64,000 bases of DNA from an uncultured Lachnospiraceae bacterium. GTDB taxonomy: Bacteria; Bacillota; Clostridia; Christensenellales; Pumilibacteraceae. Every line of letters begins with the position of its first letter. Within the stretch, counting starts at the first letter, position 1. The position numbers and the translations under genes were made by a program. The notes under the pieces are model-generated. The model saw nothing but the letters and a program-made list of their open reading frames with translations, searched no databases and was not told the origin of the DNA. The DNA is taken from the NCBI GenBank assembly GCA_964591125.1, contig CAZQAC010000001.1:24674-88673 (forward strand), in the 5' to 3' direction. Of the stretch, positions 1,567-54,422 are shown in pieces.

Positions 1567-1622
1567 ATATCGGGTTTATTTTCCGAGTTCTAATTATTTT
1601 AAGCATATAAATAAACGCAGAC

Positions 1623-2510
1623 TCAGTGTCGCAACCTCATTACTTTTGCGATAACAAGCCAAATCAGATTTGCGATAACAATAGGAACATAACATAGCGT
1701 CGATATAACAGCCAATATAATAGCCCACAAAATCGAAATCAAAGGCAAAGCCAAAAGAGTCGAAAAGAGAAAAACATATTGAGGTTGATATATTTTGTAA
1801 TTAGAAGCATAACTTTTATTGCTTTTTCCTATTTCAAGATTTTCATTGAAAATATCAAAAATCATATTCCAAAGACCGATATAATATTGTTTTGCCGCAT
1901 AAGAAAACTGCGATAATTCCACAGACGCGGTAAAATCAAAAGCGAACATCTCGCCTATATAATCTTTTTTCGTGTTTTTGACCGACCAAAAAACGGAATA
2001 AAAACAAGCAAACAAAAATGCTATTGTAAAATATGCAAGCAAAGCGCCGACAATGATTTGAGCAAAGAATAAAAAAATCATAATTTGCAAACCGATAACG
2101 CCGATTACAATCGCCGTACCCAAAACAACTACCGCGACAGCAACCATAAACCACATCCAACGCTTAGGCGACAACAGCCTGTATTGCCCCGATTTTGCCA
2201 ATGCATTCGAAGCAACCGACATATTTTCTTTAAACGAATATTTCGACGCAACCAAAATAATCGTTACCCAACGTTTTAATAAAGCCCAAAACGAATGAAT
2301 TTCGCATCCGCTTAATTCCCTTACTGCAACGACAAAAGACTTTACATAAACAATGAGCGCGTAAATTGCGGCGATTCCTACTCCCACCGCAAGAAATACG
2401 CTCAAGACCATCAAGCCTATAGAAGAAAATATAGCCGATACAAAAATTAATATAATGATGGTAACTAATATACTGGATAAAATATTTCCGAATAGTTTTC
2501 TGCCAAACAT
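1623..2510 (-). CDS. Polytopic membrane protein (about 6-8 TM); last gene of the Hsp70/GTPase operon
   Basis: ORF 1623..2522 begins at a TTG. The ATG at 2510 (MFGRKLF) has GAGG 6 nt upstream and lies 8 nt after the stop of the 89-aa gene. Long hydrophobic segments throughout. No family motif recognised. Confidence 0.75.
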   Translation of the reverse strand: MFGRKLFGNILSSILVTIIILIFVSAIFSSIGLMVLSVFLAVGVGIAAIYALIVYVKSFVVAVRELSGCEIHSFWALLKRWVTIILVASKYSFKENMSVASNALAKSGQYRLLSPKRWMWFMVAVAVVVLGTAIVIGVIGLQIMIFLFFAQIIVGALLAYFTIAFLFACFYSVFWSVKNTKKDYIGEMFAFDFTASVELSQFSYAAKQYYIGLWNMIFDIFNENLEIGKSNKSYASNYKIYQPQYVFLFSTLLALPLISILWAIILAVISTLCYVPIVIANLIWLVIAKVMRLRH

Positions 2511-2518
2511 TTTTCGCC

Positions 2519-2788
2519 TCAATATAATAATTGCAACAGTTTATTCCAAAACTTTTCATTTGCTTCGATAAGAGCTTTTTTACCGCTTTTCAAAACAATG
2601 GAAATAATATACTTACTTTTCATAATGCCGGAAGTTTGATTAACGATTTCATATTTCGAAACCGTATCTTTACTTATTTCTTCACGATTTAGGATATTCG
2701 TAAAATACAATCGCGGTTTATGCAATAAATTAAAGCTTTCGACAATATCCCAGCCCTTAAAATCTCCGGCAATTATTTTACTTTTCAT
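2519..2788 (-). CDS. Small soluble protein of unknown function (89 aa), operon member
   Basis: RBS GGAGGTG directly upstream of the ATG. Non-hydrophobic sequence that looks beta-rich. Tightly coupled to the downstream membrane protein. Confidence 0.7.
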   Translation of the reverse strand: MKSKIIAGDFKGWDIVESFNLLHKPRLYFTNILNREEISKDTVSKYEIVNQTSGIMKSKYIISIVLKSGKKALIEANEKFWNKLLQLLY

Positions 2789-2930
2789 TTTTCACCTCCG
2801 CAACGAAAACAATTCGACTCTTAAGCAATTCCTTACAATTAATCGTCGGACTCGCAACAAATTGCTAATTAATAATTCTTTGATGCACATTTCCATAAAA
2901 ATGCGGTCTTTAAGCACTATAAAATCAAAT

Positions 2931-4442
2931 TTATATACTTTTGCCCCACTTTTTTTTCAAATCTATCGATGGGCATACTTTATCGATTATCCAAAGAGCG
3001 GGCTCATAAACTCCGTTCGGAGAAAACGGAGTTCCGTCTTCGTTGTGTCCCAGCGCACTACACGTAAAGAATTGTACGCTTTTGAACTTGGACTTCAGAT
3101 TATTTAGGAAATTCTCTTCTTCATAATCTTGCAAGAATTTTTCGCAAACAACGTTCTTTGCCGCAAATTTATCCTTTATTTTTCCATCTTTCAAAAGATT
3201 TTGAACGGCTTTTTCGCCGATTAGTTCATCTATTCCGGGAATATCGCATTTATTGAATACAAGCAAAACGTCCGTTTTTAACATATCTTTTGAATTGAGG
3301 TTATACATATTCTGCAATGTGTTTACGAGAGAACTTAACACTTCGTCCATGGATTTTTGGCTAATCGTGTACGCGGTTAAATCCACGGATTTTTCTATGG
3401 ATTTTCTGTACGCGTTAATGGACAGCGGATCGACGACCATAATAAATGCTGAGGCATAACGGAAGCCGAGCTGATGCTCCAACGCAGAATTGTTATCGTA
3501 AGCTTCACCTGCCACATCACAAAAAGATATTAAATTGCGAACTTTGACTTTTTTGGGGGTTAGATAAAACTGATAATATTTTAATTTTTGATTATCCGTT
3601 TTGGGAAGACGGTGTCCTTGCTCCAATGCCATTTTGTTATCGGCGTAATCGTCATCGAGCAAATCGTTATTAATGTATTCAAAAACAAGATCGTTTTCGG
3701 AAGCTTTTTTTTCGAGCTCGCTAATAGCCATATTAATGAAGCATGATTTACCCGAACCCGTTCCGCCGACTACCGGAATACACCTGTCTACTTGCAAACC
3801 GTTAGAATGAAGTTCGTATTCACAATGCGGGCAAATCCATTTACCGGGCAACTTATGACGTCCGTTAAGAAAGGTCGTCGGCAATACTCTGCCGCATTCG
3901 CATTTTCGATGCATTATTCCGTAGCGACTCGGAACAAGATTCGTATGAATCGCGCCGCACTCGCATACATATGCCGGCAACGCGTATTTTCTTTGACAAT
4001 TCGGACAACTGGTAGATATGTTTTTAATATGATTATATAAAAAGTCGATAAATTTAACGATAACAAAGTATATATATGTAAACAAAAAGAAAACACTTAA
4101 AATTATCGTATGCAATACCGACATAATCGCCGTAACGACAATGGTTATCAAAGTTCCGCCAACCAATTTAAATAGAAAAAACGAAAATTTTATAAGAGAC
4201 CAAATGCCGCTAAAAAATTCCGACCATTCGAAATCGTCTCCGCTTAGACCGAAAGAAATGCATTTTTGGAACAAATACCCGACATGCTTTAATTTTTGCA
4301 AGCCCAACAACGCAAGCCCCAATTGAGCCGCAGAAGTTTTCATATGCCCTACGCATCTTTGAAAAGCATTTTTTATTGTGTTTACAAATTCAACATATCC
4401 GCCTTTAAAGAAATAATTTATAAATGCAGGTTGTTTTTTCAT
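2931..4442 (-). CDS. Membrane-anchored zinc-ribbon P-loop GTPase (TRAFAC-type motifs)
   Basis: 503 aa with RBS AGGAGA. N-terminal ~130 aa is hydrophobic (2-4 TM). Cysteine pairs CPNC..CECG..CECG..CPHC indicate two zinc ribbons. GTPase motifs: G1 GGTGSGKS, G3 DVAG, G4 NKCD, G5 CSALG. Confidence 0.85.
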   Translation of the reverse strand: MKKQPAFINYFFKGGYVEFVNTIKNAFQRCVGHMKTSAAQLGLALLGLQKLKHVGYLFQKCISFGLSGDDFEWSEFFSGIWSLIKFSFFLFKLVGGTLITIVVTAIMSVLHTIILSVFFLFTYIYFVIVKFIDFLYNHIKNISTSCPNCQRKYALPAYVCECGAIHTNLVPSRYGIMHRKCECGRVLPTTFLNGRHKLPGKWICPHCEYELHSNGLQVDRCIPVVGGTGSGKSCFINMAISELEKKASENDLVFEYINNDLLDDDYADNKMALEQGHRLPKTDNQKLKYYQFYLTPKKVKVRNLISFCDVAGEAYDNNSALEHQLGFRYASAFIMVVDPLSINAYRKSIEKSVDLTAYTISQKSMDEVLSSLVNTLQNMYNLNSKDMLKTDVLLVFNKCDIPGIDELIGEKAVQNLLKDGKIKDKFAAKNVVCEKFLQDYEEENFLNNLKSKFKSVQFFTCSALGHNEDGTPFSPNGVYEPALWIIDKVCPSIDLKKKWGKSI

Positions 4443-4458
4443 TGATTTTTTCTCCTAA

Positions 4459-4662
4459 CTACTGTCTGAGTTTAACTTGCGAGAACAATGCGGCAAAATA
4501 GTTTTTAACACCCATAACAGCTCCCAAAAACATGCCGATAATCGCCCCGCCGACAAAAGTCAAAAAACAAATATACAATACTATACAAAAACCGGCTATT
4601 ACCGCCGCAATATATAATAACGTAAATGCAATTTGAAATAACGAATCTAAAAAACCTTCCAT
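4459..4662 (-). CDS. Small two-TM membrane protein (67 aa), operon member
   Basis: RBS GGAGGTG upstream. Almost entirely hydrophobic (two helices). Gaps of 16-18 nt to both neighbours. Confidence 0.7.
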   Translation of the reverse strand: MEGFLDSLFQIAFTLLYIAAVIAGFCIVLYICFLTFVGGAIIGMFLGAVMGVKNYFAALFSQVKLRQ

Positions 4663-4680
4663 CTTTCACCTCCAATAATA

Positions 4681-7449
4681 TTAATCGTCGTCTTTATTTG
4701 TTTTATCTTTTTTTCCGAATCCGAAAATCTGAGAGAAAAAGCCTCCGCCTTCCTTTTTGTCTTTCTCTTTCTTATCGTTGTTTTTCTTTTTTTCTTCTTT
4801 TTTATTGACAAAACCTAACTGTTCCGTGAAAATTTGTATATTTTGCTTAAATTGTTCCGGAACCGACGAAAGAATATCGCCAATTAATCTCTCTGCCTTT
4901 TTTCTGTTGGAAAAACTGCCTATATAATAATTAAGAAGCCCCCTCAAATCATCGGCAAAGCTATAATGATAATTGCAAGCAAATACAAACATATCGGATA
5001 ACAAAATCATACTGTTCTTCGTATTAGATTTTGCCATTACATTCATAAATTCGCTTTTGAAATACCTACTTTTTATAAGTTCGCTAAATAATAAAGTCAA
5101 AACCCTCATATTATTATTGCAAATATAGTCATCGTTTTTTTCATTGGAGTTTTGCACGGTGCGATAATTTAAATAAATGTTAACTATAACGCAAAGATAA
5201 TTTGCGACCAATTCGTCTATTTGCCTTTCGTTAAGAATCGGAGTTACGAACGAATTGTATTGTATTAACTTTTCAACGAACCAGACGGTAGCCTCTTTGC
5301 TCCCCTCAGCCGTCTTTAGATTTTGTATTAAATCGACATAATTTCTTTTCGGATCGAGTTCGATGCGGTTATTATATAATTTACTGTCTAAATCCTTTCT
5401 AAGCGACGTTTCTTGCGCGGAATATTGAAGTATGTATTCCGCAGACGGCTCATACATTTTTTTGTGAATGTAAAGCAATACGTCTTTCATATCTCCCCGA
5501 TTAATATCCACGCCGGTACGACATATATCCGAATATATTTCAAAACAACTTTTTTCGTTAGGAGAATGTGCCAAATAGTACTTAAGCTTTTCTAAATACA
5601 ACCCTCTATCAAAGCCTTTAAGATAATAATTATTAAAATAATTATTTAAATCGGATCTGACGATATTGTTATTTACGCTGAACGCATATGTTTCGCGAAT
5701 TATTTTGAAATTAGAAAATCTCTGCTCTCGTATAAGTTCGTTTTCGAGCGCCGAATAAAGCGAAGGGTTGTTGTTATAATATTTCGTATACTCCGAAATA
5801 AAATGCGAAGATTGCTCATTCATTTCAACCACTCGTTTAAGTATTTCAAGCTGTAACGATTGAGATTTTACCGCTTCTATAAAAAAGAACATCATACGAT
5901 TATTATTTTCGGCGTTATCGAATCGACATATCGTGTCCAAAATTAGTTTTTCTGCAAGCTTGCCCGAAACCGAATACGCTTCGGAAAGAAGTGTATTAAC
6001 TTCTTTAACTGTCTTTTCATTTGAATAAAAGACAAAAATATACAGCATAACCGAATAAATTTTATCAGAACCCGAGTGCGATAATTCTTTAAGAAGAGTC
6101 ACATAAATCAAATTATTCCATCTAAAATCGTTTTGACTCGCAAAACCCGCAGCAAAACTGTTTTGCGCTACAAGATATTGTAAAAATTCGCTTGCAGAAA
6201 ACGGTGCAGCCGAAAAAAACGATTCGACATATTCCAAAGCGTCCGCCGATGACGACGCATAATTTTCAATATGCGAAATATAATAATCTATTAGATTTTT
6301 TCTTATCGCCGTATCTCCGTATCGATACATCCGTTTAAGAAGAGCCGCCGAAATCGTCACATCATTCCATTTTTTCTGAACAAAATACGAACTATAAATG
6401 TTGCTAACCGCATCATTGGGCGTTAAAATGTTATATTTTTCGGCAATATTGTTAGTTTCGATAAATTCATCGAAATTCGAAAACCACTGAACTCGATTAT
6501 TTTTAAGCATAAACAACGGAACTGCCTGCTCACGATTGCAATCGTATGCGTTACAGAGATTATCGATTTCGTTAACGTATTCCAACGCTTCGAGAAGACT
6601 TTTACCGAGAGCGTCGCGAATTCCGGCAATATACGCATCTAAAGAAATGCTTGCGATTATGTTTTTTGTTAAGTCAAAAATCGGTTGGCTTGTCGAAAAC
6701 GACGACACGGCTACATTTCGAATTGTAAGAGGTTTTGCTCCGGATAACCCGCTCGACGCATTAAAATTATTAACCGCGGCTATCTTAGAACCGAACGTTA
6801 CTTTTTCGCGCAACTGAGGAGGAAGAAACAATCCTATTGCGGTATACCATAATTCCAAATTGGCGTCGGTGTCGATCAAAACAACGGAACTGTCAGTATT
6901 CGCCGCATTTATAACAGCCTGCAACAATATAGGAAAACTCTGTTTTCTTTCGGCTGTCAAAAAAGCTTCGACTTCCCGAAAGTTCAACGCGTCGGGTTGA
7001 ATATCTATTTGCGGAAGCGTTTCCGGACAAGGGTTGTCATGCCATTCGACAAATTCCAACTTACTTTTAAATTTATTTTTGTTTAAAAACGACATCGGAA
7101 ACATTTCGCCCAAACTGTCGAAAACATAAGCATGTATAAAAAAGTTGCCCCATCGCGTATCCTGACCGTATTCCGTTTTGCCGCTATAAACCCTACCTAT
7201 GAAATTTGATTCCGCCAAAACTTTTTTGCCCGTTGACAACACAAAATAAGCGTATTTCGTCGGACACGCTTTTTTTATTTCTTCTTCTGACGCCTCGTAA
7301 AGATTAACACCCGAAGGGTTCTTATACGTCATAAGTTGATGAATTTCTTCACCTTCCGCATCGGTAATATCCGCCGTTTTCGACCAAACGGTAAAATCGC
7401 CGTTTTTTTGTTTTCCGCATGCCGTAAATATATACTGAGAAACTAACAT
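4681..7449 (-). CDS. Large (922 aa) alpha-helical protein of unknown function with a Lys/Glu/Asp-rich C-terminal tail
   Basis: Uninterrupted 922-aa ORF with RBS GGAGGAGGA. I recognise no catalytic motif. C-terminus is KKEEKKKNNDKKEKDKKEGGGFFSQIFGFGKKDKTNKDDD. Confidence 0.85.
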   Translation of the reverse strand: MLVSQYIFTACGKQKNGDFTVWSKTADITDAEGEEIHQLMTYKNPSGVNLYEASEEEIKKACPTKYAYFVLSTGKKVLAESNFIGRVYSGKTEYGQDTRWGNFFIHAYVFDSLGEMFPMSFLNKNKFKSKLEFVEWHDNPCPETLPQIDIQPDALNFREVEAFLTAERKQSFPILLQAVINAANTDSSVVLIDTDANLELWYTAIGLFLPPQLREKVTFGSKIAAVNNFNASSGLSGAKPLTIRNVAVSSFSTSQPIFDLTKNIIASISLDAYIAGIRDALGKSLLEALEYVNEIDNLCNAYDCNREQAVPLFMLKNNRVQWFSNFDEFIETNNIAEKYNILTPNDAVSNIYSSYFVQKKWNDVTISAALLKRMYRYGDTAIRKNLIDYYISHIENYASSSADALEYVESFFSAAPFSASEFLQYLVAQNSFAAGFASQNDFRWNNLIYVTLLKELSHSGSDKIYSVMLYIFVFYSNEKTVKEVNTLLSEAYSVSGKLAEKLILDTICRFDNAENNNRMMFFFIEAVKSQSLQLEILKRVVEMNEQSSHFISEYTKYYNNNPSLYSALENELIREQRFSNFKIIRETYAFSVNNNIVRSDLNNYFNNYYLKGFDRGLYLEKLKYYLAHSPNEKSCFEIYSDICRTGVDINRGDMKDVLLYIHKKMYEPSAEYILQYSAQETSLRKDLDSKLYNNRIELDPKRNYVDLIQNLKTAEGSKEATVWFVEKLIQYNSFVTPILNERQIDELVANYLCVIVNIYLNYRTVQNSNEKNDDYICNNNMRVLTLLFSELIKSRYFKSEFMNVMAKSNTKNSMILLSDMFVFACNYHYSFADDLRGLLNYYIGSFSNRKKAERLIGDILSSVPEQFKQNIQIFTEQLGFVNKKEEKKKNNDKKEKDKKEGGGFFSQIFGFGKKDKTNKDDD

Positions 7450-7465
7450 GGTATCCTCCTCCCCT

Positions 7466-8596
7466 TTATCTTTTAACTTTCTTTATATAATTTTTTTCCG
7501 CAAACAACCACAATAGCGGATCCAAAACGCGATGCGGCTGTATTTGAGAACCGGAAATTTTCATATCGTTAGGAACATCACCTAATGCGCTTACACCGAA
7601 TAGCGAATATTTCTCAAAATTTTTCATACATTGAAGCACTTCGCCCTCAAGCCAATGCGAAAGCAAATCTTCAAGCTCGGTATTGACGCTTTCTTGATCT
7701 TGAAGAACGAAAACTCCGCGTTTTAAATGTTCGGATTCGCTTGCGACCGCATAATCGTTTCTGATTACGCCATATTTAATAAGCGCGTCTATTTTTGTGA
7801 AAACGACAGCTAACGGCGTTTTTATGTTGCCCTTTGTCTTTTTGACGTTTTTAATGTTGGTCACTATTCGATTTAATATTTCTACAACGTCGGTATTTTG
7901 CGGCGGTAAATTCATTTTTCCTTTAAGTTTTTCTCTAACCGGAGGTAATTGTAAAGGATCCAAAAGTAAAATAATACCGTCGGCATTAGGTATATAACGA
8001 TTAAAATGTATCATATTTTCCGCGTTGTCAAGATTTTCTCCCGCGGTATCGTAAAATGTAAGCGAAGCGGTATTTTTAATTCTGTTTTTATTATCCATAA
8101 AATTAATGGGAAACAGTAACGGCGGTATAACTCCGCTATCCGTTGCGGAAATGACATATCCGTCTACAAATAACGGTTTATAATAGTTTTCGTCATAATA
8201 ACGTTTAGATTCTTCGCTACAACAAATATTCAGCGAGCAATTAAAACTGTGCGACATTTTACGCTTGATTTCGTTTACGAGCACGCCTATGTAATTGGAT
8301 TTTCCCGAAGCTTTTGCTCCGACAAGCGCAATGGTCATACCGTTATTGGTTAAATAATCTCTCGGAATAACTTTTTCACTTTCTTTAAATTCGGGACAAT
8401 AGATATATAAGCTGGCTTCTTTGCAATTAAGGCATTTGCTTTTGCTTGTTTTTGGGATATACATCGACGGAATCTCTTTTTTTACTCCGGATGCGCAGAC
8501 TTCACGCGTTTGTCCGTTCATGTTATCGGAACATCTCATGTCACATTCCAATAATTCGTGTTTTCCGTAGCAATAAGGGCAAGTAAATTTGGGCAT
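7466..8596 (-). CDS. Soluble zinc-ribbon P-loop GTPase, paralog of 2931..4442
   Basis: Start placed at ATG 8596 (MPKFTCPYC, RBS AAGGAGA) instead of the ORF-track 8650. N-terminal CPYC..C..C and CLNC..C cysteines. GTPase motifs: G1 GAKASGKS, G3 DTAG, G4 TKID, G5 VSALG. Confidence 0.85.
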   Translation of the reverse strand: MPKFTCPYCYGKHELLECDMRCSDNMNGQTREVCASGVKKEIPSMYIPKTSKSKCLNCKEASLYIYCPEFKESEKVIPRDYLTNNGMTIALVGAKASGKSNYIGVLVNEIKRKMSHSFNCSLNICCSEESKRYYDENYYKPLFVDGYVISATDSGVIPPLLFPINFMDNKNRIKNTASLTFYDTAGENLDNAENMIHFNRYIPNADGIILLLDPLQLPPVREKLKGKMNLPPQNTDVVEILNRIVTNIKNVKKTKGNIKTPLAVVFTKIDALIKYGVIRNDYAVASESEHLKRGVFVLQDQESVNTELEDLLSHWLEGEVLQCMKNFEKYSLFGVSALGDVPNDMKISGSQIQPHRVLDPLLWLFAEKNYIKKVKR

Positions 8597-8613
8597 ATAA
8601 AATTCTCCTTTCT

Positions 8614-11600
8614 TTAAAGTGTATTGACTTCTCGAAGTCTTACGTCGCATTTCTCGTCGGATACAAATATATTAAATTTCATATTCTTTGCAGTCGGAGC
8701 GAGCTTAACCGTATATTTTCCCGTATATTTATTTGAGAAAAAGCCTTTCTTCAACTGTATCGGCTCGATACGTTCAACAAGTTCTCCTTCCGTTTTATCG
8801 ATCGGACGAGGATATCCTTTTATTAAAAGCAAAGAAGGTATCGTAACTTCGGAATTTGCTTCGAATAAAATATTTAATTTAAATTGTTTTAACGCCGAAA
8901 CAGAATAATCGAGTTTATAATGAACGAATACTTTTTCTCTTTCGCCCAAAACTTCATCTATCACAAACGGCTGAGAATAAGATAAAATTCCGTTTAATCT
9001 AAATTCAGAAAAAACCGAAACGTAACTCAGCGTATTTGCTTTTAGTTTTAATTCAGCTTTGCCGTCTCGAACAAAATCGACGCGTTTATATCTAAAACAT
9101 TCGCCGTCATCCTCCATCGTTTTCGGGAAAGCTTTGTTGCTCACTTTCAAAACTAAATTTTCGGCTTTTTCGTTTATATTGCCCTTAACAACAAGCGAAC
9201 CCGACAGCAACTCGTATTCGAGCGCCTGACCTTTTATTGTATTGAAAACAATCGGCTCCGAAATTATAAATAATTGCTCGTTTTGAGCAACCGGATACAA
9301 CCAACCGATTTTTCCTTCGGGCAGATTAACAAGAGTATTTCCTTCTATATCCACAGACGTAGATAATTTCGTTAAACCTTTCGCCACCGTGCCAAAATCC
9401 GCAAGCCTCTGCGTTTTATTATACGGTAACGGTTGTTTGCTCTCGGAATAAAACATGCTTATCGCGTTAGCATTTTCGTCGCTGTTAAAAATATACTGGT
9501 TTCCGTGTGCAAATGTAATTCTTGCGTTTGTAATTTTATTTAATACTTTAAACGGGGTAAATACCGATCTGATACCTCGCGACAATATCTCATTTCCGTC
9601 GACGACGTATTCGCAAACAATTAAATATGCCGCTTCTCCCGAAACGTCGTAATCGGCAAAACCGGACAAATCGCAAGAAACAGATTCGCCGTCACCGATC
9701 TTCTCGGGGGCGATATTGCCTCTCTTCTTAAACACTTTGACAGCCTTGACGTTTTGCGGAGCTTTCCAGGTAACTTTTATACAATCATTAACTATTTCTT
9801 GATGGATCTGAGTAACCTCGGCGTAAATAATCGGCGCTTGAGTTGTAACTAATTTAGATTTAATTCCGCAACGATCGGCAAAAACCGCATAATAATATTT
9901 AGTCGCCGGAACGACTGCGAGATCTTCATAAAACATGATCGACAAATTTTCGGCAACAATCGATCCGTCATCCGGTCCGGTCGGACATACGCCTATTTTT
10001 TTAATTATCGTAAAACTTACGTTTTCCTGCGCAGCCGTAACCGACCATTCTATTTTCATGGAATTGCCGGAAATAAAAGTTCGCACTGAAGTCGGCGCAT
10101 TAGGAGGATATTTCTTTAAGATTGCTCTCGATTCTTCACAATCTTCGCATAATTCGTTAACTTTTACAGCATTCGCGATTGCCGTTTTAGAATCGTTTTT
10201 TTCCGCAGCCCCTTTTGCTATAGTAAGAAATTGACGAATCTTGCTCAGTTCCGTAGAAATCGAAGAAAGAAAAGCTGCCGTGCTGTTTGCATTATAGGTC
10301 AAATATTTTTGTTTTAACGTTTTTGCCAAAGCTTCCGCCGAAAAAAGCTTTTTTTCGGCAATGAGCTTCTTCAATTTTGCTTCGTCTTCTCGATAAGATT
10401 TACCTAGTTTTTCCTCTACCGCTTTAAGATTTTTAATCGAGTCTTCATAGCTTTTTATTTTCTTGCTTACAACCGAATTGGGCTTTGACAAATAATCGGG
10501 AAGAATATTACACAATTCAAGAAACGCGTTATCGAGTTTGGAAATATTCGGTTGCGATTGACTTAATAAAGCATCGATTTCGCTTGATTTTTGCTGCAAT
10601 TTTTCTTCCGTTTGCTTGGCGGCTCCGCAACTCGGACAAGTTTGCTTGTCTTTGGAATAAGCCATTCTTTCACCGCAATTCCAGCAAATGATTTCAAGAG
10701 GTTTACCGCAGTGAGGACAGCTTTTTGCGCCTTTTTTATAAATTTTGTTACAGTACGGACATGTATCGAAATTGCTCTCGTCTTCCTTGCCACTTACAAA
10801 CAACTTATAATAATTACAACCTACGGAAAGTATTTTTTCGGCTTCGTCAACGGTTACGCCAAGCGCGTCCACGGCAACCTGAACAAACTCCTCGTATTCT
10901 TCCATGGAAAGATTAAGACCGTAAACGTTTTTAAGTTTAAACTTTTCCCATATACTGTCTTTTAATTTTAAATAATAATCATAATTAGACCGATATTTTG
11001 CATCTTTATTTAGCAACAATTGCGTCATACTTCCGCACAGTCCGCTTATAGCTTGTTTTAATTTTAAATCGGCTGTTTTTGAAGCATTCGAATTCGCGGT
11101 TTTTATGGCAGCGGATATTTCGTCGCTTGTGGCATTAGCTTTAACCCCCAAAAACTCATATAAATCTCGCTTCTTTACCACTTTTAACATGTCTTCAACT
11201 TCTTTATATTTATTAAAAGGCATGCTTTTATCGATATTATCTATTATTTTAATACCTTGCTGCTGCAAATAATCGATTTTTGTTTTCAGCTCATCTAACG
11301 TAAAATAATTATTGGCTGCATGGCGAATGTTTTCCAAATCGCTAACCAAAATAAACTTTCGATTGGATTTCGTGCACATATCCTGAATTATTTCCACCGC
11401 TTCCGAAAGCTTGAATTCTTTTGCACGAGCAGCTTCCTCTTTACGAGCGCCTTTTTTCGGTTCGTAAACTTCACCGTTTAATTTAGCGTCGTTGCACATT
11501 ACTTCAAGAATATTTTCTCTAAGCTCCAAAAGTCGTTTTTTGTGCAAGTTAGTACCGCTGGCATCCCCAAGTATTGTTTTTACTTTTTGCTCGATATTCT

Positions 11601-11697
11601 TCGAATTGGTTTCAGTAATATCGAAAGCAAATGCAATAAAATAATTAAACTTCGGATCTTTTAATTCTTCCGCAGTTCTTTGTGCATGAACAGCCAT
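8614..11697 (-). CDS. 1027-aa multidomain protein: J-domain-like segment (no HPD), double zinc ribbon, coiled-coil region, beta-rich (Ig/FN3-like) C-terminal half
   Basis: RBS AGAGGAG. Residues ~177-240 (KKRDLYEFLGVKANATSDEISAAIK...) resemble J-domain helices I-II. Residues 313-357 are CPYC..CPHC..CWNC..CPSC. The C-terminal ~480 aa is rich in short beta-strand patterns. Confidence 0.8.
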   Translation of the reverse strand: MAVHAQRTAEELKDPKFNYFIAFAFDITETNSKNIEQKVKTILGDASGTNLHKKRLLELRENILEVMCNDAKLNGEVYEPKKGARKEEAARAKEFKLSEAVEIIQDMCTKSNRKFILVSDLENIRHAANNYFTLDELKTKIDYLQQQGIKIIDNIDKSMPFNKYKEVEDMLKVVKKRDLYEFLGVKANATSDEISAAIKTANSNASKTADLKLKQAISGLCGSMTQLLLNKDAKYRSNYDYYLKLKDSIWEKFKLKNVYGLNLSMEEYEEFVQVAVDALGVTVDEAEKILSVGCNYYKLFVSGKEDESNFDTCPYCNKIYKKGAKSCPHCGKPLEIICWNCGERMAYSKDKQTCPSCGAAKQTEEKLQQKSSEIDALLSQSQPNISKLDNAFLELCNILPDYLSKPNSVVSKKIKSYEDSIKNLKAVEEKLGKSYREDEAKLKKLIAEKKLFSAEALAKTLKQKYLTYNANSTAAFLSSISTELSKIRQFLTIAKGAAEKNDSKTAIANAVKVNELCEDCEESRAILKKYPPNAPTSVRTFISGNSMKIEWSVTAAQENVSFTIIKKIGVCPTGPDDGSIVAENLSIMFYEDLAVVPATKYYYAVFADRCGIKSKLVTTQAPIIYAEVTQIHQEIVNDCIKVTWKAPQNVKAVKVFKKRGNIAPEKIGDGESVSCDLSGFADYDVSGEAAYLIVCEYVVDGNEILSRGIRSVFTPFKVLNKITNARITFAHGNQYIFNSDENANAISMFYSESKQPLPYNKTQRLADFGTVAKGLTKLSTSVDIEGNTLVNLPEGKIGWLYPVAQNEQLFIISEPIVFNTIKGQALEYELLSGSLVVKGNINEKAENLVLKVSNKAFPKTMEDDGECFRYKRVDFVRDGKAELKLKANTLSYVSVFSEFRLNGILSYSQPFVIDEVLGEREKVFVHYKLDYSVSALKQFKLNILFEANSEVTIPSLLLIKGYPRPIDKTEGELVERIEPIQLKKGFFSNKYTGKYTVKLAPTAKNMKFNIFVSDEKCDVRLREVNTL

Positions 11698-11740
11698 GTT
11701 TTAACTCCTCTTTTGTATTTTGATTGTTTTTGGGGTTCGT

Positions 11741-14131
11741 TTAGAATTTAAATTTATTACCCAAAAAATTAGAATTCTTCAATTTTTGTTCTTTATGATA
11801 ACCAAATCTTTCAACGTTTGCAAGCCAAGCCGCAGCATTAACGACATATCTGTCCGTCCCCGCACTCTCCCATTTGCAATAAAGTCGAGTATAACCGCCA
11901 TCCGCCAACACGCGTCTTCCGTTATCGTCGCAACAAGCCGTAACTACGCCCAGATCGGAGCCGTATACCAAAGGCTTTAATATGCTTGTCGTATGCACGT
12001 CCGCGATTGTTTCTCCTTCATAAAAGTTTACCAATCCCGTTGTTATCGGATGATTTTCTATAATTCCGGGTTGTCCCGCCGTGTGCTGTATCGATATAAC
12101 CTTGCATCCGTGTAAATTACCGTCCATATATGTTCCGAACAATCTATCCAAAATAGCATTTGCATCCACATACCACGGATCATTGTCGCCCCACAAGTAA
12201 ATGCCGTGACCTTTTTGATAATAATCGTAAATAAGCTCTAAACATCTGTCGTCAATGTGACGCTTTACTCCGGAGATTACCCATAATTGAGAATCAGGTT
12301 CCGACAAAATACTTTTCAAAGACAAATACGATGGCGTTTCGCTATATTCTTGCACTTCAAAGCCTTTTCTTGCCAATGCAACTTTGGGCTTTCCCATAAT
12401 ATCATCATAAGTTCCGCTTGTTCCGTCATTGCCGAAATTCAAAACGATAATTTTATAGCCCTTAAACGCTCCGTCTTTCGCAAGATCGAATTCTCCGCCT
12501 TGCGGATTGCCGTATCGGTCGGTTGTAGTCGAAGGTATGTTGCTGATTCCCGCCCATTGAGTGTACGGGGTATTCATCGCTTGTTTATATTCTGCTTCCA
12601 ATTTATCGCAAATAGAATCCAAAGATTCCGTAATACTTACTCTTTGCACAGGCAAAGGGTTTCCGTTAGAATCTTTGGCGGTAACTTCCACAACGCCGTT
12701 TTGGTTGTATAAAAACGCAACCGAAAAATCATTTTGAACCCCTTTTTTCAGGTTGCTTAAGACATATTTATCCAAAAGCAAACATTCGTAAGGATTTTCG
12801 GATTCGCCTTGCAAAACATAAATCTCGGTAGAATCACTTTTGACGTTATACTTCTTTTCTTTTGCAATGCCGATTTTACTGTTTTTTTCAAGTATAATGC
12901 TGTTTATAAATTTAACACTCGTTTCGCTTATAGCCGAAGTAGCAAGCAATCCGAGACTGTGCGCGGTTATGTCTTTAATGTCGGAATTGTGAATAGTCAA
13001 AGCCATCGGTTGACTGCTTCCGTTTTTGGACGGTCCCATCAAAGTAATTACGTTGTTTACGCAAAGTTCGGCTTGCATTGCCGCACCGGTCGCAACAATC
13101 GTATCAACGTTTATATCTTTGGTTACAGGCGCTTTTCCGTATTCTTTTATAATCCTTTCTTTTACTTGCGGCATTCTCGTCGAACCGCCCACAAGCACGA
13201 CTTCGTCGATGTCTTTCCAACCGAAAGGACGTTGTTGTTGAACACTAATTTCTTCGAAACACCTATCTATAAGCAAAAAGGTTTCGTTTAATAAGCTTTC
13301 CGTTCTTTCTTCGAACATTTCCTTCGTAACTTCGTATTTTCCGCTACAACCTTCGCACGATGCCTGTATCAACGTTGTTGCAACCGACGAAAGTCTTTTT
13401 TTGGCATCTTCGCATTTAACCTGTAACTCTTTGAAATCATCCGAATGAGAACGAATGTCGATGCCGAACTCCGAATAAAATTGATCAATAACTTCGTTGA
13501 TCAAAACATCGTCCCAATTCATTCCGCCCAATTGATGATTACCGTTGGTTGCCGTTACGTTTATACCTGTTCCTTCAACGTGCGCGATAGTTACGTCAAA
13601 CGTACCTCCGCCGAGATCGTATACCATTACGTTTTTATTTTTATCGCCTGTCAAACCGTACGCGATTATTGCCGAAGTAGGTTCGTTGATAATTTTCAAC
13701 ACGTTCAATCCCGCTTTTTGAGCCGCACGCATTGTTGCTTCTCTTTGCTTATTGTCAAAATAAGCCGGAACGGTTATTACGGCGTTTTCGATCGTCACAT
13801 CGTTTGTTTGTTCGATATCCTTCTTCAATTCAGAAAGAAAAAGTCCTGACAAATCTTCTGCAGAATATTCCGTATCTTCCAAATATGCGCTATAACACGG
13901 GTTACACATCATGCTCTTATAAAAAGCAGCTGTATTTATATTACCGGATTTCTGTTCGTTTTTTGCGTCTTCACCAATCAACACGTTTCCGTTATCTAAG
14001 CACACAACAGACGGCGTTGTTTCTTTGCCCAAACTGTTTTTTAATACTTCGACACGATTATTTTGTTTAGAAAATACCGCTACAGCCGAATAAGTTGTTC
14101 CGAGATCTATTCCGACGTTTATTTTTTTCAT
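11741..14131 (-). CDS. Hsp70/DnaK-family ATPase with a ~260-aa non-canonical C-terminal extension
   Basis: Start at ATG 14131 ([24 protein letters not shown]); the ORF-track start 14143 is a TTG. Hsp70 signatures present: [30 protein letters not shown]. The C-terminal ~260 aa is unlike an Hsp70 lid. Confidence 0.9.
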   Translation of the reverse strand: MKKINVGIDLGTTYSAVAVFSKQNNRVEVLKNSLGKETTPSVVCLDNGNVLIGEDAKNEQKSGNINTAAFYKSMMCNPCYSAYLEDTEYSAEDLSGLFLSELKKDIEQTNDVTIENAVITVPAYFDNKQREATMRAAQKAGLNVLKIINEPTSAIIAYGLTGDKNKNVMVYDLGGGTFDVTIAHVEGTGINVTATNGNHQLGGMNWDDVLINEVIDQFYSEFGIDIRSHSDDFKELQVKCEDAKKRLSSVATTLIQASCEGCSGKYEVTKEMFEERTESLLNETFLLIDRCFEEISVQQQRPFGWKDIDEVVLVGGSTRMPQVKERIIKEYGKAPVTKDINVDTIVATGAAMQAELCVNNVITLMGPSKNGSSQPMALTIHNSDIKDITAHSLGLLATSAISETSVKFINSIILEKNSKIGIAKEKKYNVKSDSTEIYVLQGESENPYECLLLDKYVLSNLKKGVQNDFSVAFLYNQNGVVEVTAKDSNGNPLPVQRVSITESLDSICDKLEAEYKQAMNTPYTQWAGISNIPSTTTDRYGNPQGGEFDLAKDGAFKGYKIIVLNFGNDGTSGTYDDIMGKPKVALARKGFEVQEYSETPSYLSLKSILSEPDSQLWVISGVKRHIDDRCLELIYDYYQKGHGIYLWGDNDPWYVDANAILDRLFGTYMDGNLHGCKVISIQHTAGQPGIIENHPITTGLVNFYEGETIADVHTTSILKPLVYGSDLGVVTACCDDNGRRVLADGGYTRLYCKWESAGTDRYVVNAAAWLANVERFGYHKEQKLKNSNFLGNKFKF

Positions 14132-14162
14132 TTTTTTCTCCAATGTTTTTAACTAAAAGAGC

Positions 14163-14221
14163 AGGCTGCAAAACGATTTTACGATGATTACGATAATTCG
14201 GTAAAATATTTTTTGCAGCCT
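14163..14221 (-). promoter_or_regulatory. Intra-operon stem-loop in the 212-nt gap between the two Hsp70 genes (possible attenuator, partial terminator or processing site)
   Basis: aggctgcaaaa (14163-14173) pairs perfectly with ttttgcagcct (14211-14221), with a 37-nt loop. On the minus strand the stem is followed by gctcttttag. No classic U-run. Confidence 0.3.
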
Positions 14222-14343
14222 TGCCGATTTTAGTACGACTTTTTATTGTTAAGGTTAAAAAGATAAATAATTATAACTTTTTTCGATACATTACAAAACC
14301 GATAGCCGACGTCACGATTTTCACCGCAACGAAAATTATCAAA

Positions 14344-16002: not shown

Positions 16003-16034
16003 AAATTTTTTCTCCTTATGAAATAATTAACTTT

Positions 16035-16322
16035 TTAACTTTTGTTTGCTTCGTTCCAAAGCTTATCGTATTCGTCAAACACCGCATCTATTACGGCATC
16101 GTCAAGCTCTATTTCAAAACTACTTTCGCCGTTTTTCTGCGTTACTTTAAAAACCAACGCTTCGTCTTCGTCCATGCCTTCAAGTAGTTCTACAGGTTGC
16201 AATATAGCATAAAAATCGCCTCGATATTGTATCCCGGCAATCTCTATAAAATCTATATCTTCGCCATTTGCACTTTTTAACGTAACAATATCGTCTTCAC
16301 AATAATCATGATCAGCAATCAT
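16035..16322 (-). CDS. DUF1292-like small acidic protein (95 aa)
   Basis: Start at ATG 16322 (MIADHDY, RBS GGAGAAGG); the ORF-track start 16343 is a TTG. Pattern IVTL..NGEDIDFIEIAGIQY..FYAILQPV...ALVFKV is typical of DUF1292. Confidence 0.75.
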   Translation of the reverse strand: MIADHDYCEDDIVTLKSANGEDIDFIEIAGIQYRGDFYAILQPVELLEGMDEDEALVFKVTQKNGESSFEIELDDAVIDAVFDEYDKLWNEANKS

Positions 16323-16355
16323 TGTCCTTCTCCTATTTTCCAAACCGTTTAGTCG

Positions 16356-16868
16356 TCATTTTTTCCAAGTTTTTTTAATTTTCCTAAAAACTCGCCGCAT
16401 TATAAGGAACGAAATCAATCCGCCTACTGCGCTAAACAAAGCAATACCGATCCCGCCAGAGACAAGAAGAACTATTGCCGAAACAGAATTAAAAACAAAA
16501 AAAACCGCGCTGATTATTAATATTACGCTCAAAAAAATGGTTTTTAAGCCTTTCCCAGCTGTTTTCGTGGCAACATGAGCTGTTTCTGCAAACGTGTTTT
16601 GCTCATTTTTAATTTTCTTGTTACCCGACTGATTTATAAGTTTATCATATTCTAAGAACACTGCGTCCAAAACGTTTTCGTCGCGTTCGAGCAGATAATT
16701 ATTTTTTCCGTTTTCATACAATACTTTGTAAACCGAAATTTTCTCGTCTCCGTTTACAGATCTTAATATTGCATAAAATTCGTCTCGATATTGTATCCAA
16801 GCTAACTTTACAAAATCGACCGATTCGCCGTATTCGTTTTTTATTGTAATAATATCATCATCAGCCAT
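16356..16868 (-). CDS. DUF1292-like domain fused to a C-terminal two-TM anchor (170 aa)
   Basis: RBS AGGTGA. N-terminal IITIKNEYGESVDFVKLAWIQYRDEFYAILRSV. The C-terminal 60 aa is hydrophobic, followed by a basic tail (RRVFRKIKKTWKK). Confidence 0.75.
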   Translation of the reverse strand: MADDDIITIKNEYGESVDFVKLAWIQYRDEFYAILRSVNGDEKISVYKVLYENGKNNYLLERDENVLDAVFLEYDKLINQSGNKKIKNEQNTFAETAHVATKTAGKGLKTIFLSVILIISAVFFVFNSVSAIVLLVSGGIGIALFSAVGGLISFLIMRRVFRKIKKTWKK

Positions 16869-16914
16869 TATTTTTCACCTAAAATTGATAAAGTTTAAAT
16901 TGATGTTACTAAAA

Positions 16915-17457
16915 TTATTTTTTCGATATAGTCTTAATAAACTTTTTAAGCGACCAACGTCCGACTAAAAACGAAATTACTCCGAAAATCGCGCAACCGA
17001 GCAATTGCGAAAAATCAAACGGATCGCATCCGTCTTGTACCGAAACGCATGCCGCAATAAAAACGACGGCGCATTGGAATGTAATTGCGCCCCATAAAAC
17101 AGCCATAACGATTTTCGAAGTTTTCTTTGCCGCCGCTTGAATATTATTAAAGGCGTTTCCCTTGCCTTGCGATTTTTTGACTTTGCCGCCGTTGTTAGAT
17201 GCGTTCCAAAGCTTATCGTATTCCTTGAACACCGCATCTATCACGCTATCGTCAAGCTCTATTTCAAAACTCTCTTCGCCGTTTTTCTGCGTTACTTTAA
17301 AAACCAACGCCTCGTCGTCTCCCATGCCTTCAAGAAGCTTGACGGGTTGCAATATAGCGTAAATATTGCCTTTGTATTGTATTGCGGCTATTTTTTCAAA
17401 ATCGATATTTTCGCCGTTCGCGCTTACTAAAGTGATTATGTTATCGTTATTTGCCAT
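16915..17457 (-). CDS. DUF1292-like domain fused to a C-terminal two-TM anchor (180 aa)
   Basis: RBS GGAGAA. N-terminal IITLVSANGENIDFEKIAAIQYKGNIYAILQPV. Hydrophobic C-terminus with a basic tail. About 165 bp of its DNA is ~89% identical to 16035..16322. Confidence 0.75.
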   Translation of the reverse strand: MANNDNIITLVSANGENIDFEKIAAIQYKGNIYAILQPVKLLEGMGDDEALVFKVTQKNGEESFEIELDDSVIDAVFKEYDKLWNASNNGGKVKKSQGKGNAFNNIQAAAKKTSKIVMAVLWGAITFQCAVVFIAACVSVQDGCDPFDFSQLLGCAIFGVISFLVGRWSLKKFIKTISKK

Positions 17458-17490
17458 CTTTCCAATTCTCCAAAATATTTTTAATTTTTA

Positions 17491-18552
17491 TTATCCTCGC
17501 ACTTTACAAACATCTACTTTTGCAGGATAAATCACTTTATCGTCCGATTTGTACAAATCGGTATAAACCTTAACAATCTTTCCGTTCTTTTCTGCTTCGT
17601 CGGAAGAAATCGGAATAAACTTCATTATCCGATGCAGTTTCGGCTCATAAGTATCTCCCGCGGCAAGCGCGTGTTCTACAGTAACTTGGCATAAATTCAA
17701 AACCGTTTCGGTTTGATCTAAAACCATACGAAGAATGTTTTTATACATTTCCGTCAGTTCGGACAAATCCGCTTCGTCGGACCGAGCGACAATCGCGTCT
17801 ATATCGTTTTTTGTTTTAATATAATATCCTACAAGTTGTCTGATAACCGGATAAAGCACGACTTGCTGTATATTACGCTCGGTGAGCGAGGATAGCTTAA
17901 TATACTCCCCAACTACAATATCAAGCATCGCGTTATCTTTTAAAAGAGATTTTATTTCTTCCGTCTTTTTATCAAATAAAGAAATGACGTCGCTCTGAGA
18001 ATAGCTTACGTTTTCCGAAATAGGTGCGACGTCTTCGTTCTGGGTTTCAGGAATAGGAGCAGAAAACGGTTGCACTCCGACGATCTCCGTCGCATTTATA
18101 TCGACGCCGTTTAAAATAACGGAACTTTCATTTACTTCTACGCCGATATTTTGCAATAACATCTCGTATTCGTCGGGAATATACAACAAATATTTCACGA
18201 TAGATTCTTTTTTTAATTCATATTGACCTGCATCTCTTAACGATTTAGCGCAATCTTCACGAAAATTAATAATATTCTGCGCAATCGATTTAAACAACTG
18301 CTTGCTGTAATCGTTTCTGTATTTTTGCAATTCGCTGTTCATTTTATAAAGATTCGCGTCTTTTTCTTTTACGATTTTTATAACGTTGCGAATATTAACA
18401 AACCAACCGTTAATAAGCTTTGCGAGATCTTCGTTCGGTATTTGTTGCACGCAAGAAGAATTTTTTTCGACGTTTGCAGTTTCATTCGAATTTACCGAAT
18501 CTTTTTCGTTTAAATCAAGCGATTCCTCTTGATTGATATCCGTATTTTCCAT
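17491..18552 (-). CDS. GrpE-like nucleotide exchange factor with a long acidic/coiled-coil N-terminal extension; first gene of the operon
   Basis: RBS GGAGGA. The C-terminal segment GDTYEPKLHRIMKFIP...GKIVKVYTDLYKSDDKVIYPAKVDVCKV matches the GrpE beta-domain pattern (G..FDP..H.A...V...GY....V.RPA.V.V.K). Confidence 0.7.
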   Translation of the reverse strand: MENTDINQEESLDLNEKDSVNSNETANVEKNSSCVQQIPNEDLAKLINGWFVNIRNVIKIVKEKDANLYKMNSELQKYRNDYSKQLFKSIAQNIINFREDCAKSLRDAGQYELKKESIVKYLLYIPDEYEMLLQNIGVEVNESSVILNGVDINATEIVGVQPFSAPIPETQNEDVAPISENVSYSQSDVISLFDKKTEEIKSLLKDNAMLDIVVGEYIKLSSLTERNIQQVVLYPVIRQLVGYYIKTKNDIDAIVARSDEADLSELTEMYKNILRMVLDQTETVLNLCQVTVEHALAAGDTYEPKLHRIMKFIPISSDEAEKNGKIVKVYTDLYKSDDKVIYPAKVDVCKVRG

Positions 18553-18582
18553 TTATTCCTCCACAATAAACATAATCAAGTA

Positions 18583-18651
18583 AATAAATCGAAATAGATT
18601 TATTGTTTCCCCTTATAAGTTCACACAAATTTCAGCCGTTAATCTTATAAG
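18583..18651. promoter_or_regulatory. Candidate operators in the divergent promoter region between the operon and the XRE gene
   Basis: Perfect inverted repeat AATAAATC-N6-GATTTATT (18583-18604). Two copies of the palindrome CTTATAAG (18612-18619 and 18644-18651) lie 32 bp apart. An extended -10 TGTTATAAT for the minus-strand operon sits at 18659-18667. Confidence 0.3.
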
Positions 18652-54419: not shown

Positions 54420-54422
54420 CCT

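Follow-up and report, generated by a model that had tools for sequence, protein, structure and literature searches.

A thirteen-gene operon very probably belonging to the HSP70-GrpE theme of GTPase-centric systems in an uncultured Lachnospiraceae bacterium

GTPase-centric systems built on DO-GTPases and their GAP1 partners, which Kaur, Burroughs, Iyer and Aravind delineated in silico (eLife 2020, PMC7159879), are among the largest predicted prokaryotic conflict systems, and their description is purely computational. As described in that work, DO-GTPases possess a glutamate in the Walker B motif, are often paired, and carry one or two N-terminal zinc ribbons and sometimes transmembrane (TM) segments. 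GAP1 consists of N, M and C domains and is encoded downstream of the GTPase, with the GAP1-N2 type adding a protein of fibronectin type III (FNIII) repeats. A second theme, found in firmicutes and actinobacteria and making up ~14% of GAP1-N2 neighbourhoods, includes HSP70 and GrpE; in a subset of it, an extra HSP70 lacks the peptide-binding domain. The FNIII protein of the theme usually forms a fusion with a DnaJ domain, or with TPR (PMC7159879). The operon described here lies at positions 1,623-18,552 of a 64,000-nucleotide stretch of DNA, hereafter the window, from an uncultured Lachnospiraceae bacterium (GTDB lineage Bacteria; Bacillota; Clostridia; Christensenellales; Pumilibacteraceae; assembly GCA_964591125.1, contig CAZQAC010000001.1, positions 24,674 to 88,673 of the forward strand).

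This operon is very probably a GAP1-N2-type, GTPase-centric (DO-GTPase) system of the HSP70-GrpE theme, because the published description matches it feature by feature. As in the theme, two paralogous DO-GTPase genes are paired, both products carry the Walker B glutamate and two predicted N-terminal zinc ribbons, and one has an N-terminal TM region by hydropathy. A GAP1-N2 protein is encoded just downstream of a GTPase, its gene starting 16 nt past the stop codon of the soluble one, and the FNIII-repeat protein, recognised through an AlphaFold2 (AF2) model and Foldseek, contains a segment that resembles a J domain. Two HSP70 genes, one of them encoding a protein that lacks the peptide-binding domain by Pfam and DnaK alignments, share the neighbourhood with a GrpE gene; the host is likewise a firmicute and the system membrane-proximal. 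An initial annotation of the window had proposed a candidate undescribed system, a view that gives way to the computational description of this theme in Kaur et al. 2020. Profile searches place the cassette in a system described in silico, which goes part of the way towards the already characterised system that the annotation had named as evidence against itself.

Across ~50 independent loci from metagenomes or genomes (L001-L054), the genes follow this order again, an arrangement far beyond chance, and they form one conserved cassette. In the window, the six-frame list of open reading frames (ORFs) gives 13 co-directional ORFs on the minus strand from 18552 to 1623 and no competing long ORFs on the plus strand across 1623-18552. 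Four starts were re-set to internal ATGs (long Hsp70, 14131; soluble GTPase, 8596; DUF1292 protein c, 16322; polytopic membrane protein, 2510), all of which coincide with the start positions of homologs. With these changes, an ATG preceded 5-12 nt by a GGAGG/AGGAG-type Shine-Dalgarno sequence opens 13 of 13 genes (AGGAGAAGG precedes that of DUF1292 protein c at 16322), and the gaps between genes measure 8-46 nt with two exceptions of 212 and 142 nt, as the initial annotation had described. The genes are as follows; NBD and SBD denote the nucleotide- and substrate-binding domains.

17491-18552, minus strand: GrpE-like nucleotide-exchange factor, 353 aa, with a long (~250 aa) N-terminal extension and a C-terminal GrpE domain
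16915-17457, minus strand: DUF1292 protein a, 180 aa, Pfam DUF1292 36.6 bits (cut-off 24), C-terminal 2-TM hairpin at 115-141 and 147-170
16356-16868, minus strand: DUF1292-like protein b, 170 aa, 16.6 bits (below the cut-off of 24), C-terminal hydrophobic hairpin in the stretch 103-161
16035-16322, minus strand: soluble DUF1292 protein c, 95 aa from the ATG at 16322, Pfam DUF1292 31.9 bits
14344-16002, minus strand: short Hsp70, 552 aa, a complete NBD and ~190 aa of C-terminal sequence
11741-14131, minus strand: long Hsp70 (Hsp70L), 796 aa, NBD, SBD-beta and a C-terminal GATase1/GIFT-like domain
11744-12553, minus strand: this C-terminal domain of the long Hsp70, 270 aa, predicted class-I glutamine-amidotransferase-like/GIFT-like fold
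8614-11697, minus strand: putative scaffold/sensor protein, 1027 aa, with a helical N-terminus, a J-like segment at ~177-245, a double zinc ribbon at 312-358, ~170 aa of long helices and about five FNIII-type beta-sandwiches at 537-1023
7466-8596, minus strand: soluble DO-GTPase2, 376 aa, two N-terminal Cys clusters (predicted zinc ribbons)
4681-7449, minus strand: GAP1, 922 aa, GAP1-N2 domain, weak GAP1-M, divergent helical remainder and a lysine-rich polar tail
4459-4662, minus strand: 2-TM glycine-zipper protein, 67 aa, hydrophobic stretch 3-53
2931-4442, minus strand: membrane-anchored DO-GTPase2, 503 aa, N-terminal TM region, two predicted zinc ribbons and a GTPase domain
2519-2788, minus strand: soluble protein, 89 aa, fold of no recognised type, clade-specific
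1623-2510, minus strand: polytopic membrane protein, 295 aa, ~6 TM segments in three hairpins (hydrophobic blocks 8-68, 121-182 and 248-298), last gene of the block

The GTPases, GAP1 and the chaperone set

Both GTPases pass the Pfam DO-GTPase2 cut-off of 27 bits, the soluble one at 30.0 and the membrane-anchored one at 41.5, and the 922-aa protein reaches 51 bits against GAP1-N2 (cut-off 24), a domain matched in 9 of 9 homologs. These matches bear out the link to DO-GTPases and GAP1 that the initial annotation had drawn from Kaur et al. 2020, together with its call of two zinc-ribbon GTPases, one of them membrane-anchored, and correct its statement that the 922-aa protein has no recognisable motif. 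GAKASGKS, DTAGE (the Walker B motif with its Glu), TKID and SALG are unchanged across 6 homologs of the soluble GTPase, whose invariant cysteines at 24, 27, 40, 52, 73, 76 and 85 are predicted from sequence to form zinc ribbons. The membrane GTPase carries GGTGSGKS, DVAGE, NKCD and SAL, along with the Cys pairs (CxxC/CxC) 146/149, 160/162, 181/183 and 204/207, also predicted to be zinc ribbons. The two proteins are 24-26% identical across the GTPase domain, with G1, G3 plus Glu, G4 and G5 kept in both, and most related loci of sufficient length contain both genes. A hydropathy scan of the membrane GTPase detects a strongly hydrophobic block at 83-136 (~2 TM segments) with weaker segments before it, and a polar end with no C-terminal TM segment.

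GAP1 is the most diverged large component of the operon, at 64% identity in L001 versus 85-88% for the GTPases and Hsp70s (88% for the soluble GTPase, 87% for the short Hsp70), and at 26% versus 56% in L002. This divergence is located outside the N2 domain: the N-domain is 70-76% identical to homologs and the remainder 22-50%, the region past residue 150 being the most divergent. GAP1-M scores 21.4 bits, under its cut-off of 24, with a weak match in 4 of the 9 homologs, and GAP1-C has no match at E<=1 in any of the 9.

The 67-aa protein belongs to a family with the motif GxxxGxxxGxxxG-[IV]-[KR]-N-Y, common to 16 aligned sequences, of which an iterative profile search of related loci found 44 members. 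Throughout the gene maps examined, genes of this family stand directly upstream of the TM-GTPase gene, duplicated copies included, and the pair is duplicated or triplicated in L012, L025, L036 and L047. As judged from these maps, the small gene appears to be an obligate partner of the membrane GTPase gene, and the TM-GTPase always travels with this glycine-zipper mini-protein, a candidate membrane effector. An identity as a Tim17-family protein, raised by a weak Pfam match (E 0.0027), was rejected, the score of 18 bits lying far below the cut-off of 32.7 and the GxxxG-rich composition explaining the match.

The chaperone arm begins with the GrpE-like protein, called as such in the initial annotation and matched by Pfam GrpE over residues 251-350 (1.9e-10, 41.1 bits, cut-off 25.8); its gene heads the block in the 9 related loci that extend that far. 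In the short Hsp70, the Pfam HSP70 match (2.4e-79) is confined to residues 5-363 and PDB DnaK alignments end at ~362, and neither comparison recognises a substrate-binding domain after the NBD. In the long Hsp70, Pfam HSP70 extends over residues 10-507 (7.3e-98) and DnaK 2v7y aligns to 4-501, the helical lid being absent as the DnaK alignment ends at ~501-503. The phosphate-binding, catalytic Lys and hinge ATPase motifs are intact in both. Of the two complete Hsp70 ATPases announced by the initial annotation, the ATPase part therefore stands and the completeness does not, one protein being NBD-only and the other an NBD with a lid-less SBD-beta. Against NCBIfam equivalogs, both Hsp70s score 277-307 bits for DnaK versus a cut-off of 648, the GrpE-like protein scores <=25 bits versus cut-offs >=137 (25 versus 176), and the scan returned nothing beyond sub-threshold DnaK, HscA and GrpE matches. 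The operon encodes no HrcA and no HPD motif, and it does not have the housekeeping hrcA-grpE-dnaK-dnaJ layout, as the initial annotation had stated.

The 1027-aa protein was likewise read correctly as J-like without HPD, with a double zinc ribbon and a beta-rich half, the last of which AF2 and Foldseek resolve into an FNIII array. It matches Pfam DZR at 30.3 bits and also Zn_ribbon_3. Its AF2 model, built with 28 homologs, has a predicted local distance difference test score (pLDDT) of 83, a helical N-terminal third, strands at the zinc ribbons, the long helices of ~170 aa and beta-sandwiches at 537-1023, for which last Foldseek gives tandem fibronectin FN3(7-10) fragments (3t1w/1fnf) as best matches (E 5e-9, probability 1.0); Pfam fn3 has no match in the beta-rich half searched to E<=10. 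The J-like segment at 177-245 aligns with canonical J domains by hhalign (probability 94%, E 1e-7, with reference sequences entered by hand) and its model helices fit the J fold, with Pfam DnaJ reaching just 13.5-16.5 bits (cut-off 27.8). The position of HPD reads S-x-S/T in 28 of 28 homologs, and an HP[DE] tripeptide occurs in none of the 13 operon proteins. Since HPD is absent, the J-like domain probably recruits Hsp70 rather than canonically triggering its ATPase; HPD-less J-like proteins of the Pam16 type act as recruiters. In the clade of the operon, Hsp70 recruitment and ATPase triggering may thus be uncoupled.

The same parts would suit a membrane-tethered Hsp70 ratchet resembling the mitochondrial PAM import motor, which would pull, extract or insert polypeptides with the GTPase pair as a gate and would not be an immune system. 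Its components would correspond to mitochondrial Hsp70 (mtHsp70), Mge1 (the GrpE homolog), the HPD-less J-like Pam16 and a Tim17-family channel, with the 2-TM glycine-zipper protein, the TM-GTPase, the 6-TM protein and the TM-anchored DUF1292 proteins as channel or platform. A private Hsp70 and GrpE, the consistent loss of HPD, the TM-anchored GTPase beside a 6-TM protein, and a TraG/VirD4-like coupling ATPase inserted in 11 related loci are in keeping with such a motor, as is the weak Tim17 match, until its score and composition are considered. The operon, however, encodes no signal-bearing substrate, secretin or channel of known type, the parallel is limited to parts lists, and the closest published relatives use tubulin in place of Hsp70, which does not fit a translocation motor. 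A ratchet is a very unlikely explanation. A less radical variant, also new if true, would make the Hsp70 pair itself an immune effector that sequesters or unfolds proteins of an invader, the GATase1/GIFT-like domain serving in place of vWA as an exchangeable hand.

Related loci and exchangeable modules

According to the phmmer map, the recurring core of the related loci comprises GrpE, short Hsp70, long Hsp70, the FNIII protein and the soluble GTPase, followed by the TM-GTPase and GAP1 in either order. A soluble-GTPase profile searched against metagenomes added 45 loci from termite-gut, human-gut and other samples, and GAP1 homologs are few, forming 9 clusters that are mostly singletons. L001 has 12 genes in the same order from the DUF1292 genes onward, its DNA ending before the expected position of GrpE. 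The nearest named homolog belongs to Candidatus Coproplasma, a Clostridia genus, in a gut metagenome-assembled genome (MAG). A GAP1 profile scan of GTDB representative genomes identified a single locus, in Candidatus Fibrimonas termitidis (L003, LIUG01000001.1), where a TM-GTPase and GAP1-N2 pair occupies 492-3500 with 40% and 36% identity, and no Hsp70 or FNIII gene was detected within 12.9 kb. The host of L003, a termite-gut Fibrobacterota MAG, lies outside the phyla given for GAP1-N2 systems in Kaur et al. 2020.

Three modules present in relatives are absent from the operon, and the position of one of them corresponds to its 142-nt gap.

L004 13280-14302, L005 8846-9871 and L052 10604-11593: transglutaminase-core gene, after the TM-GTPase; absent from the operon
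Window 2789-2930: intergenic gap of 142 nt, at the position where a Transglut_core gene sits in L004, L005 and L052-54
L047 17488-18501 and 11 other loci (12 loci): BspA-type LRR_5 protein after GAP1; absent from the operon
L002 5519-8032 and 10 other loci (11 loci): TraG/VirD4-like ATPase with a 390-aa partner, between the FNIII and GTPase genes; absent from the operon

L004, L005 and L052-54 share the gene order of the operon plus this transglutaminase-core gene. No remnant of it was found by tblastn in the 142-nt gap, and none in L001, whose gap measures 438 nt. For the ~337-aa gene after GAP1 in termite-gut loci, a transglutaminase assignment was rejected in favour of the BspA-type leucine-rich repeat (LRR) protein. 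The downstream neighbours differ between the operon and the three close relatives that extend past the block (L001, L005 and L052/53), which sets the boundary of the conserved block at the 6-TM gene and indicates that it moves as a whole.

An accessory module of mobile elements, serving conjugation, entry exclusion or element maintenance instead of host immunity, would account for the TraG/VirD4-like ATPase genes within the 11 related operons, for the varied genomic contexts of the cassette and for the distant GTPase homologs on unannotated Rhodococcus megaplasmids, just two of which were found in a plasmid database. Such a role is most improbable for the operon, as it has no TraG-like gene and is chromosomal, flanked by housekeeping genes, with no integrase, relaxase, transposase or tRNA near it in the window and no relative of the system on the viral contigs of IMG/VR.

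The DUF1292, 89-aa and 6-TM genes are confined to the immediate clade of the operon. Homologs of DUF1292 protein a occur only in L001 and L004, protein b is a paralog of a and c by tblastn, and DUF1292 has no PDB relative and no functional literature that could be found. The 89-aa protein has homologs of 89-131 aa only in L001, L004 and L005, and the 6-TM protein in L001, L004, L005 and L007, with a 294-aa ORF at the same place in L052/L053 (matched by position only); neither protein has a Pfam match at E<=10. Hydrophobicity places TM segments in six of the 13 products. The initial calls agree with this picture: the 67-aa TM protein, the 89-aa protein and the polytopic membrane protein were named correctly, and of three DUF1292-like proteins, two of them membrane-anchored, two exceed the Pfam cut-off, the middle one falling short at 16.6 versus 24.

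Another exchange concerns the end of the long Hsp70. Pfam recognises nothing in the final 270 residues, even at E<=10, and their AF2 model (pLDDT 89.9, predicted template modelling score 0.87) adopts a class-I glutamine-amidotransferase-like fold. The Foldseek matches are led by the N-terminal (GIFT) domain of IFT52 (5fms_B, 2e-6) and include the GATase 2a9v, OST48/Wbp1 (6ezn_G) and the ThuA-like 4e5v. The predicted fold is held in common with the inactive class-I GATase folds of the GIFT/ThuA type (IFT52 N-terminal domain, OST48/Wbp1, ThuA), at only 11-15% sequence identity and with no Pfam family. The nucleophile elbow reads LWGDND, so the domain has no catalytic Cys nucleophile. It belongs to a distinct, unnamed family of ~800 clusters (796 at 50% identity in a library of 1.8 billion proteins), fused elsewhere to Hsp70, PP2C, vWA, ankyrin/HEAT repeats, alpha-kinase and TerY_C-type zinc ribbons, and this Pfam-less, GIFT-like family merits its own name, definition and profile. 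Proteins of ~360 aa from gut bacteria make up most of the family (P0039-P0306), and some of them begin with a TerY_C zinc ribbon.

At the same position of the long Hsp70, 24 related loci carry a vWA domain, whose metal-ion-dependent adhesion site (MIDAS, DxSGS) is intact wherever inspected. The GATase1-like domain is found on the long Hsp70 of the operon and L001 only, both of which also lack the transglutaminase gene; in the clade of the operon, the swap from vWA to the GIFT-like domain is coupled to loss of that gene. Being exchangeable in this way, the domain is marked as the putative target-binding or output end of the protein.

A proposed nucleotide-gated module at the membrane

The best reading, which we regard as somewhat more probable than not, is that the operon forms a membrane-proximal, GTP/ATP-gated conflict (anti-invader) module. 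The initial annotation had offered this as one of two hypotheses, and it is the same as the literature proposes (Kaur et al. 2020). A fast-evolving GAP1, variable 3' modules, a duplicated TM-GTPase pair, a mobile block and a rare, patchy distribution are typical of conflict systems; among the relatives, the 3' end varies between transglutaminase-core, BspA-type LRR and TraG/VirD4-like ATPase modules.

For how such a module would work, the following scheme has about an even chance of being right; we infer in it which parts touch, in what order they act and what biological purpose they serve. The soluble and the membrane-anchored GTPase, paired with GAP1, would constitute a thresholding switch at the membrane, with GAP1-N2 contacting the GTPases and the fast-diverging remainder of GAP1 being lineage-specific. 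The TM-GTPase and its glycine-zipper partner would provide the membrane platform, joined in this clade by the 6-TM protein and the two TM-anchored DUF1292 proteins. The 1027-aa protein, with its FNIII array and zinc ribbons as an interaction surface, would sense or bind the target, and its J-like domain would dock the Hsp70 pair. The Hsp70 ATPases, recycled by their private GrpE, would then deliver an ATP-driven output by binding, unfolding or sequestering the target, or by multimerising, with grasping left to the SBD-beta, which has no lid, and to the GATase1/GIFT-like domain at the C-terminus (in relatives, vWA). The operon is a compact and complete example, and with the motifs of all four NTPases intact, its parts can be mutated one by one.

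Several observations weigh against a conflict module. No classical toxin domain or recognisable effector enzyme is present in this version of the operon, so the terminal output could consist in sequestering or remodelling proteins, or in a disturbance of the membrane by the glycine-zipper and polytopic proteins. The missing HPD renders a canonical Hsp70 cycle doubtful, and the FNIII region is not hypervariable, its 30-55% identity resembling that of the rest of the 1027-aa protein. The absence of relatives from IMG/VR counts here as well. A PADLOC-DB v2 scan of 10 of the 13 operon proteins (the 67-, 89- and 299-aa proteins were left out) returned two marginal matches, at E 6e-4 and 1.3e-3, and no meaningful one; the GTPases, GAP1 and the Hsp70s matched no model. 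Of 110 proteins encoded beside related loci, one AbiE pair is the sole clear defence match within the top-25 PADLOC families listed, the rest being mostly ordinary genes, and no defence-island signal therefore emerges. In the window, the operon is flanked by housekeeping genes (ABC transporter, TruA, GlmM and GlmS), and a full-text literature search for DO-GTPase/GAP1-N2 found no experimental follow-up of any GAP1/DO-GTPase system.

A rival reading is a constitutive, non-immune machine of the membrane or envelope, responsible for the assembly, insertion or quality control of specific membrane or surface proteins, or for a cytoskeleton-like structure at the membrane, as would suit a bacterium that lives socially or has an elaborate envelope. 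The housekeeping flanks without defence-island context, the missing toxin domain and the TM segments in 6 of 13 products all agree with it, and relatives carry surface-type modules (BspA LRR, lectin C, transglutaminase). Kaur et al. (PMC7159879) remarked on a resemblance to the regulated assembly of cytoskeleton-like complexes and found the tubulin, HSP70 and kinase/PP2C/vWA themes to be non-overlapping, which also points this way. What sets it back is the rare and patchy distribution in near-singleton clusters, the change of neighbours even between close relatives, the fast divergence of GAP1 and the duplication of the GTPase module in some loci. An accessory, mobile and diversifying system therefore fits better than a core machine, and we consider the envelope machine unlikely; the sporulation or envelope-remodelling alternative of the initial annotation found no specific support.

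Surroundings of the operon and comparison with known systems

Expression signals around the operon were sought in its longer gaps and upstream of its first gene.

14132-14343: intergenic gap of 212 nt between the two Hsp70 genes, with a gap of similar size in L001
18653-18682, minus strand: candidate sigma-70-like promoter upstream of the first gene, TTGTCA-18-TATTAT (10/12 matches), weak evidence

The 212-nt gap contains one weak promoter-like match at 14205-14176 and no Rfam family; across the whole window, Rfam and tRNA scans found no family and no tRNA, and there is therefore no riboswitch or leader in the two long gaps. Consensus scans for promoters and terminators gave site counts not above shuffle expectation, and a terminator-like hairpin at 19261-19243 closes the gene upstream of the operon. 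Between the first gene of the operon and the upstream AP_endonuc_2-type gene, ~740 nt (18553-19291) hold just two overlapping plus-strand ORFs of 93 and 136 aa, the latter with no significant Pfam match; this region may encode a small divergent regulator.

Elsewhere in the window, the region 51700-58200 contains ~5.5 kb of AT-rich DNA (GC 0.23-0.33), almost free of ORFs, around a lone ParB-like gene.

54423-55331, minus strand: ParB-like gene within the AT-rich region
53583-53688: DnaA boxes, four perfect (TTATCCACA) and one near-perfect within 106 bp

The GC skew changes sign near 58-60 kb of the window, no dnaA or dnaN gene is found among the annotated window ORFs, and no alternative genetic code restores ORFs to the ORF-poor 51.7-58.2 kb. 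This region could be an oriC or a partition region, of unusually large size. Two very large adjacent minus-strand genes, at 33800-39289 and 39677-43336, encode a 1829-aa protein with CarboxypepD_reg-like repeats and a 1219-aa protein with a CotH kinase domain, which are probably surface- or spore-coat-related and unrelated to the operon.

Set beside known systems, the operon shares with the housekeeping DnaK-DnaJ-GrpE machinery an NBD with intact motifs, an SBD-beta in one paralog, a GrpE-type domain and a J fold. It differs in lacking HPD, the helical lid, HrcA, a Gly/Phe-rich region and the C-terminal client-binding domains of DnaJ, in scoring far below the equivalog cut-offs, and in having its genes embedded among GTPases and membrane proteins.

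The MoxR-vWA ternary conflict systems of Kaur et al. 2020 follow a proposed logic that is analogous, in which an NTPase acts as the switch, the adaptor stays constant and the sensor or effector modules vary, and vWA is present in relatives of the operon; in contrast to them, the operon has GTPases instead of a MoxR AAA+ ATPase, and its vWA has been swapped out. The recruitment of non-housekeeping Hsp70 NBD/SBD homologs into predicted conflict operons with a GTPase also characterises CoCoNuT CnuD and the Hsp70-McrB fusions (Bell et al., eLife 2024, PMC11090510), near whose genes TerY-type vWA and zinc ribbons occur. Those systems rely on McrB, an AAA+ protein, as their GTPase, include nucleases (HEPN, McrC) and have Hsp70s with degenerate motifs, whereas the operon encodes TRAFAC DO-GTPases, no nuclease and Hsp70s with intact motifs.

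Closest are the other GAP1-N2 systems. Those of the tubulin and kinase/PP2C/vWA themes have the GTPase-GAP1-FNIII core in common with the operon, and vWA recurs, in relatives of the operon on the long Hsp70. Their variable arm is tubulin or a kinase triad, whereas here it is Hsp70 and GrpE, with no tubulin, kinase or phosphatase in the operon. From the HSP70-GrpE theme itself, the operon departs in a J-like domain without HPD, in a TM-GTPase without a C-terminal TM helix and with ~2 strongly hydrophobic N-terminal segments versus the four stated, and in a sub-threshold GAP1-M and an undetected GAP1-C. The linkage on which the initial annotation had reserved judgement is published for Hsp70 and GrpE; the three DUF1292 genes have no mention in the main text of Kaur et al. 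or in the one supplementary file searched, and the GATase1/GIFT-like domain, the transglutaminase, the glycine-zipper partner and the 89-aa and 6-TM proteins have none in the main text. The HPD-less J-like domain, the swap from vWA to the GIFT-like domain, the DUF1292 triplet and the glycine-zipper partner of the TM-GTPase are clade-specific twists on this theme.

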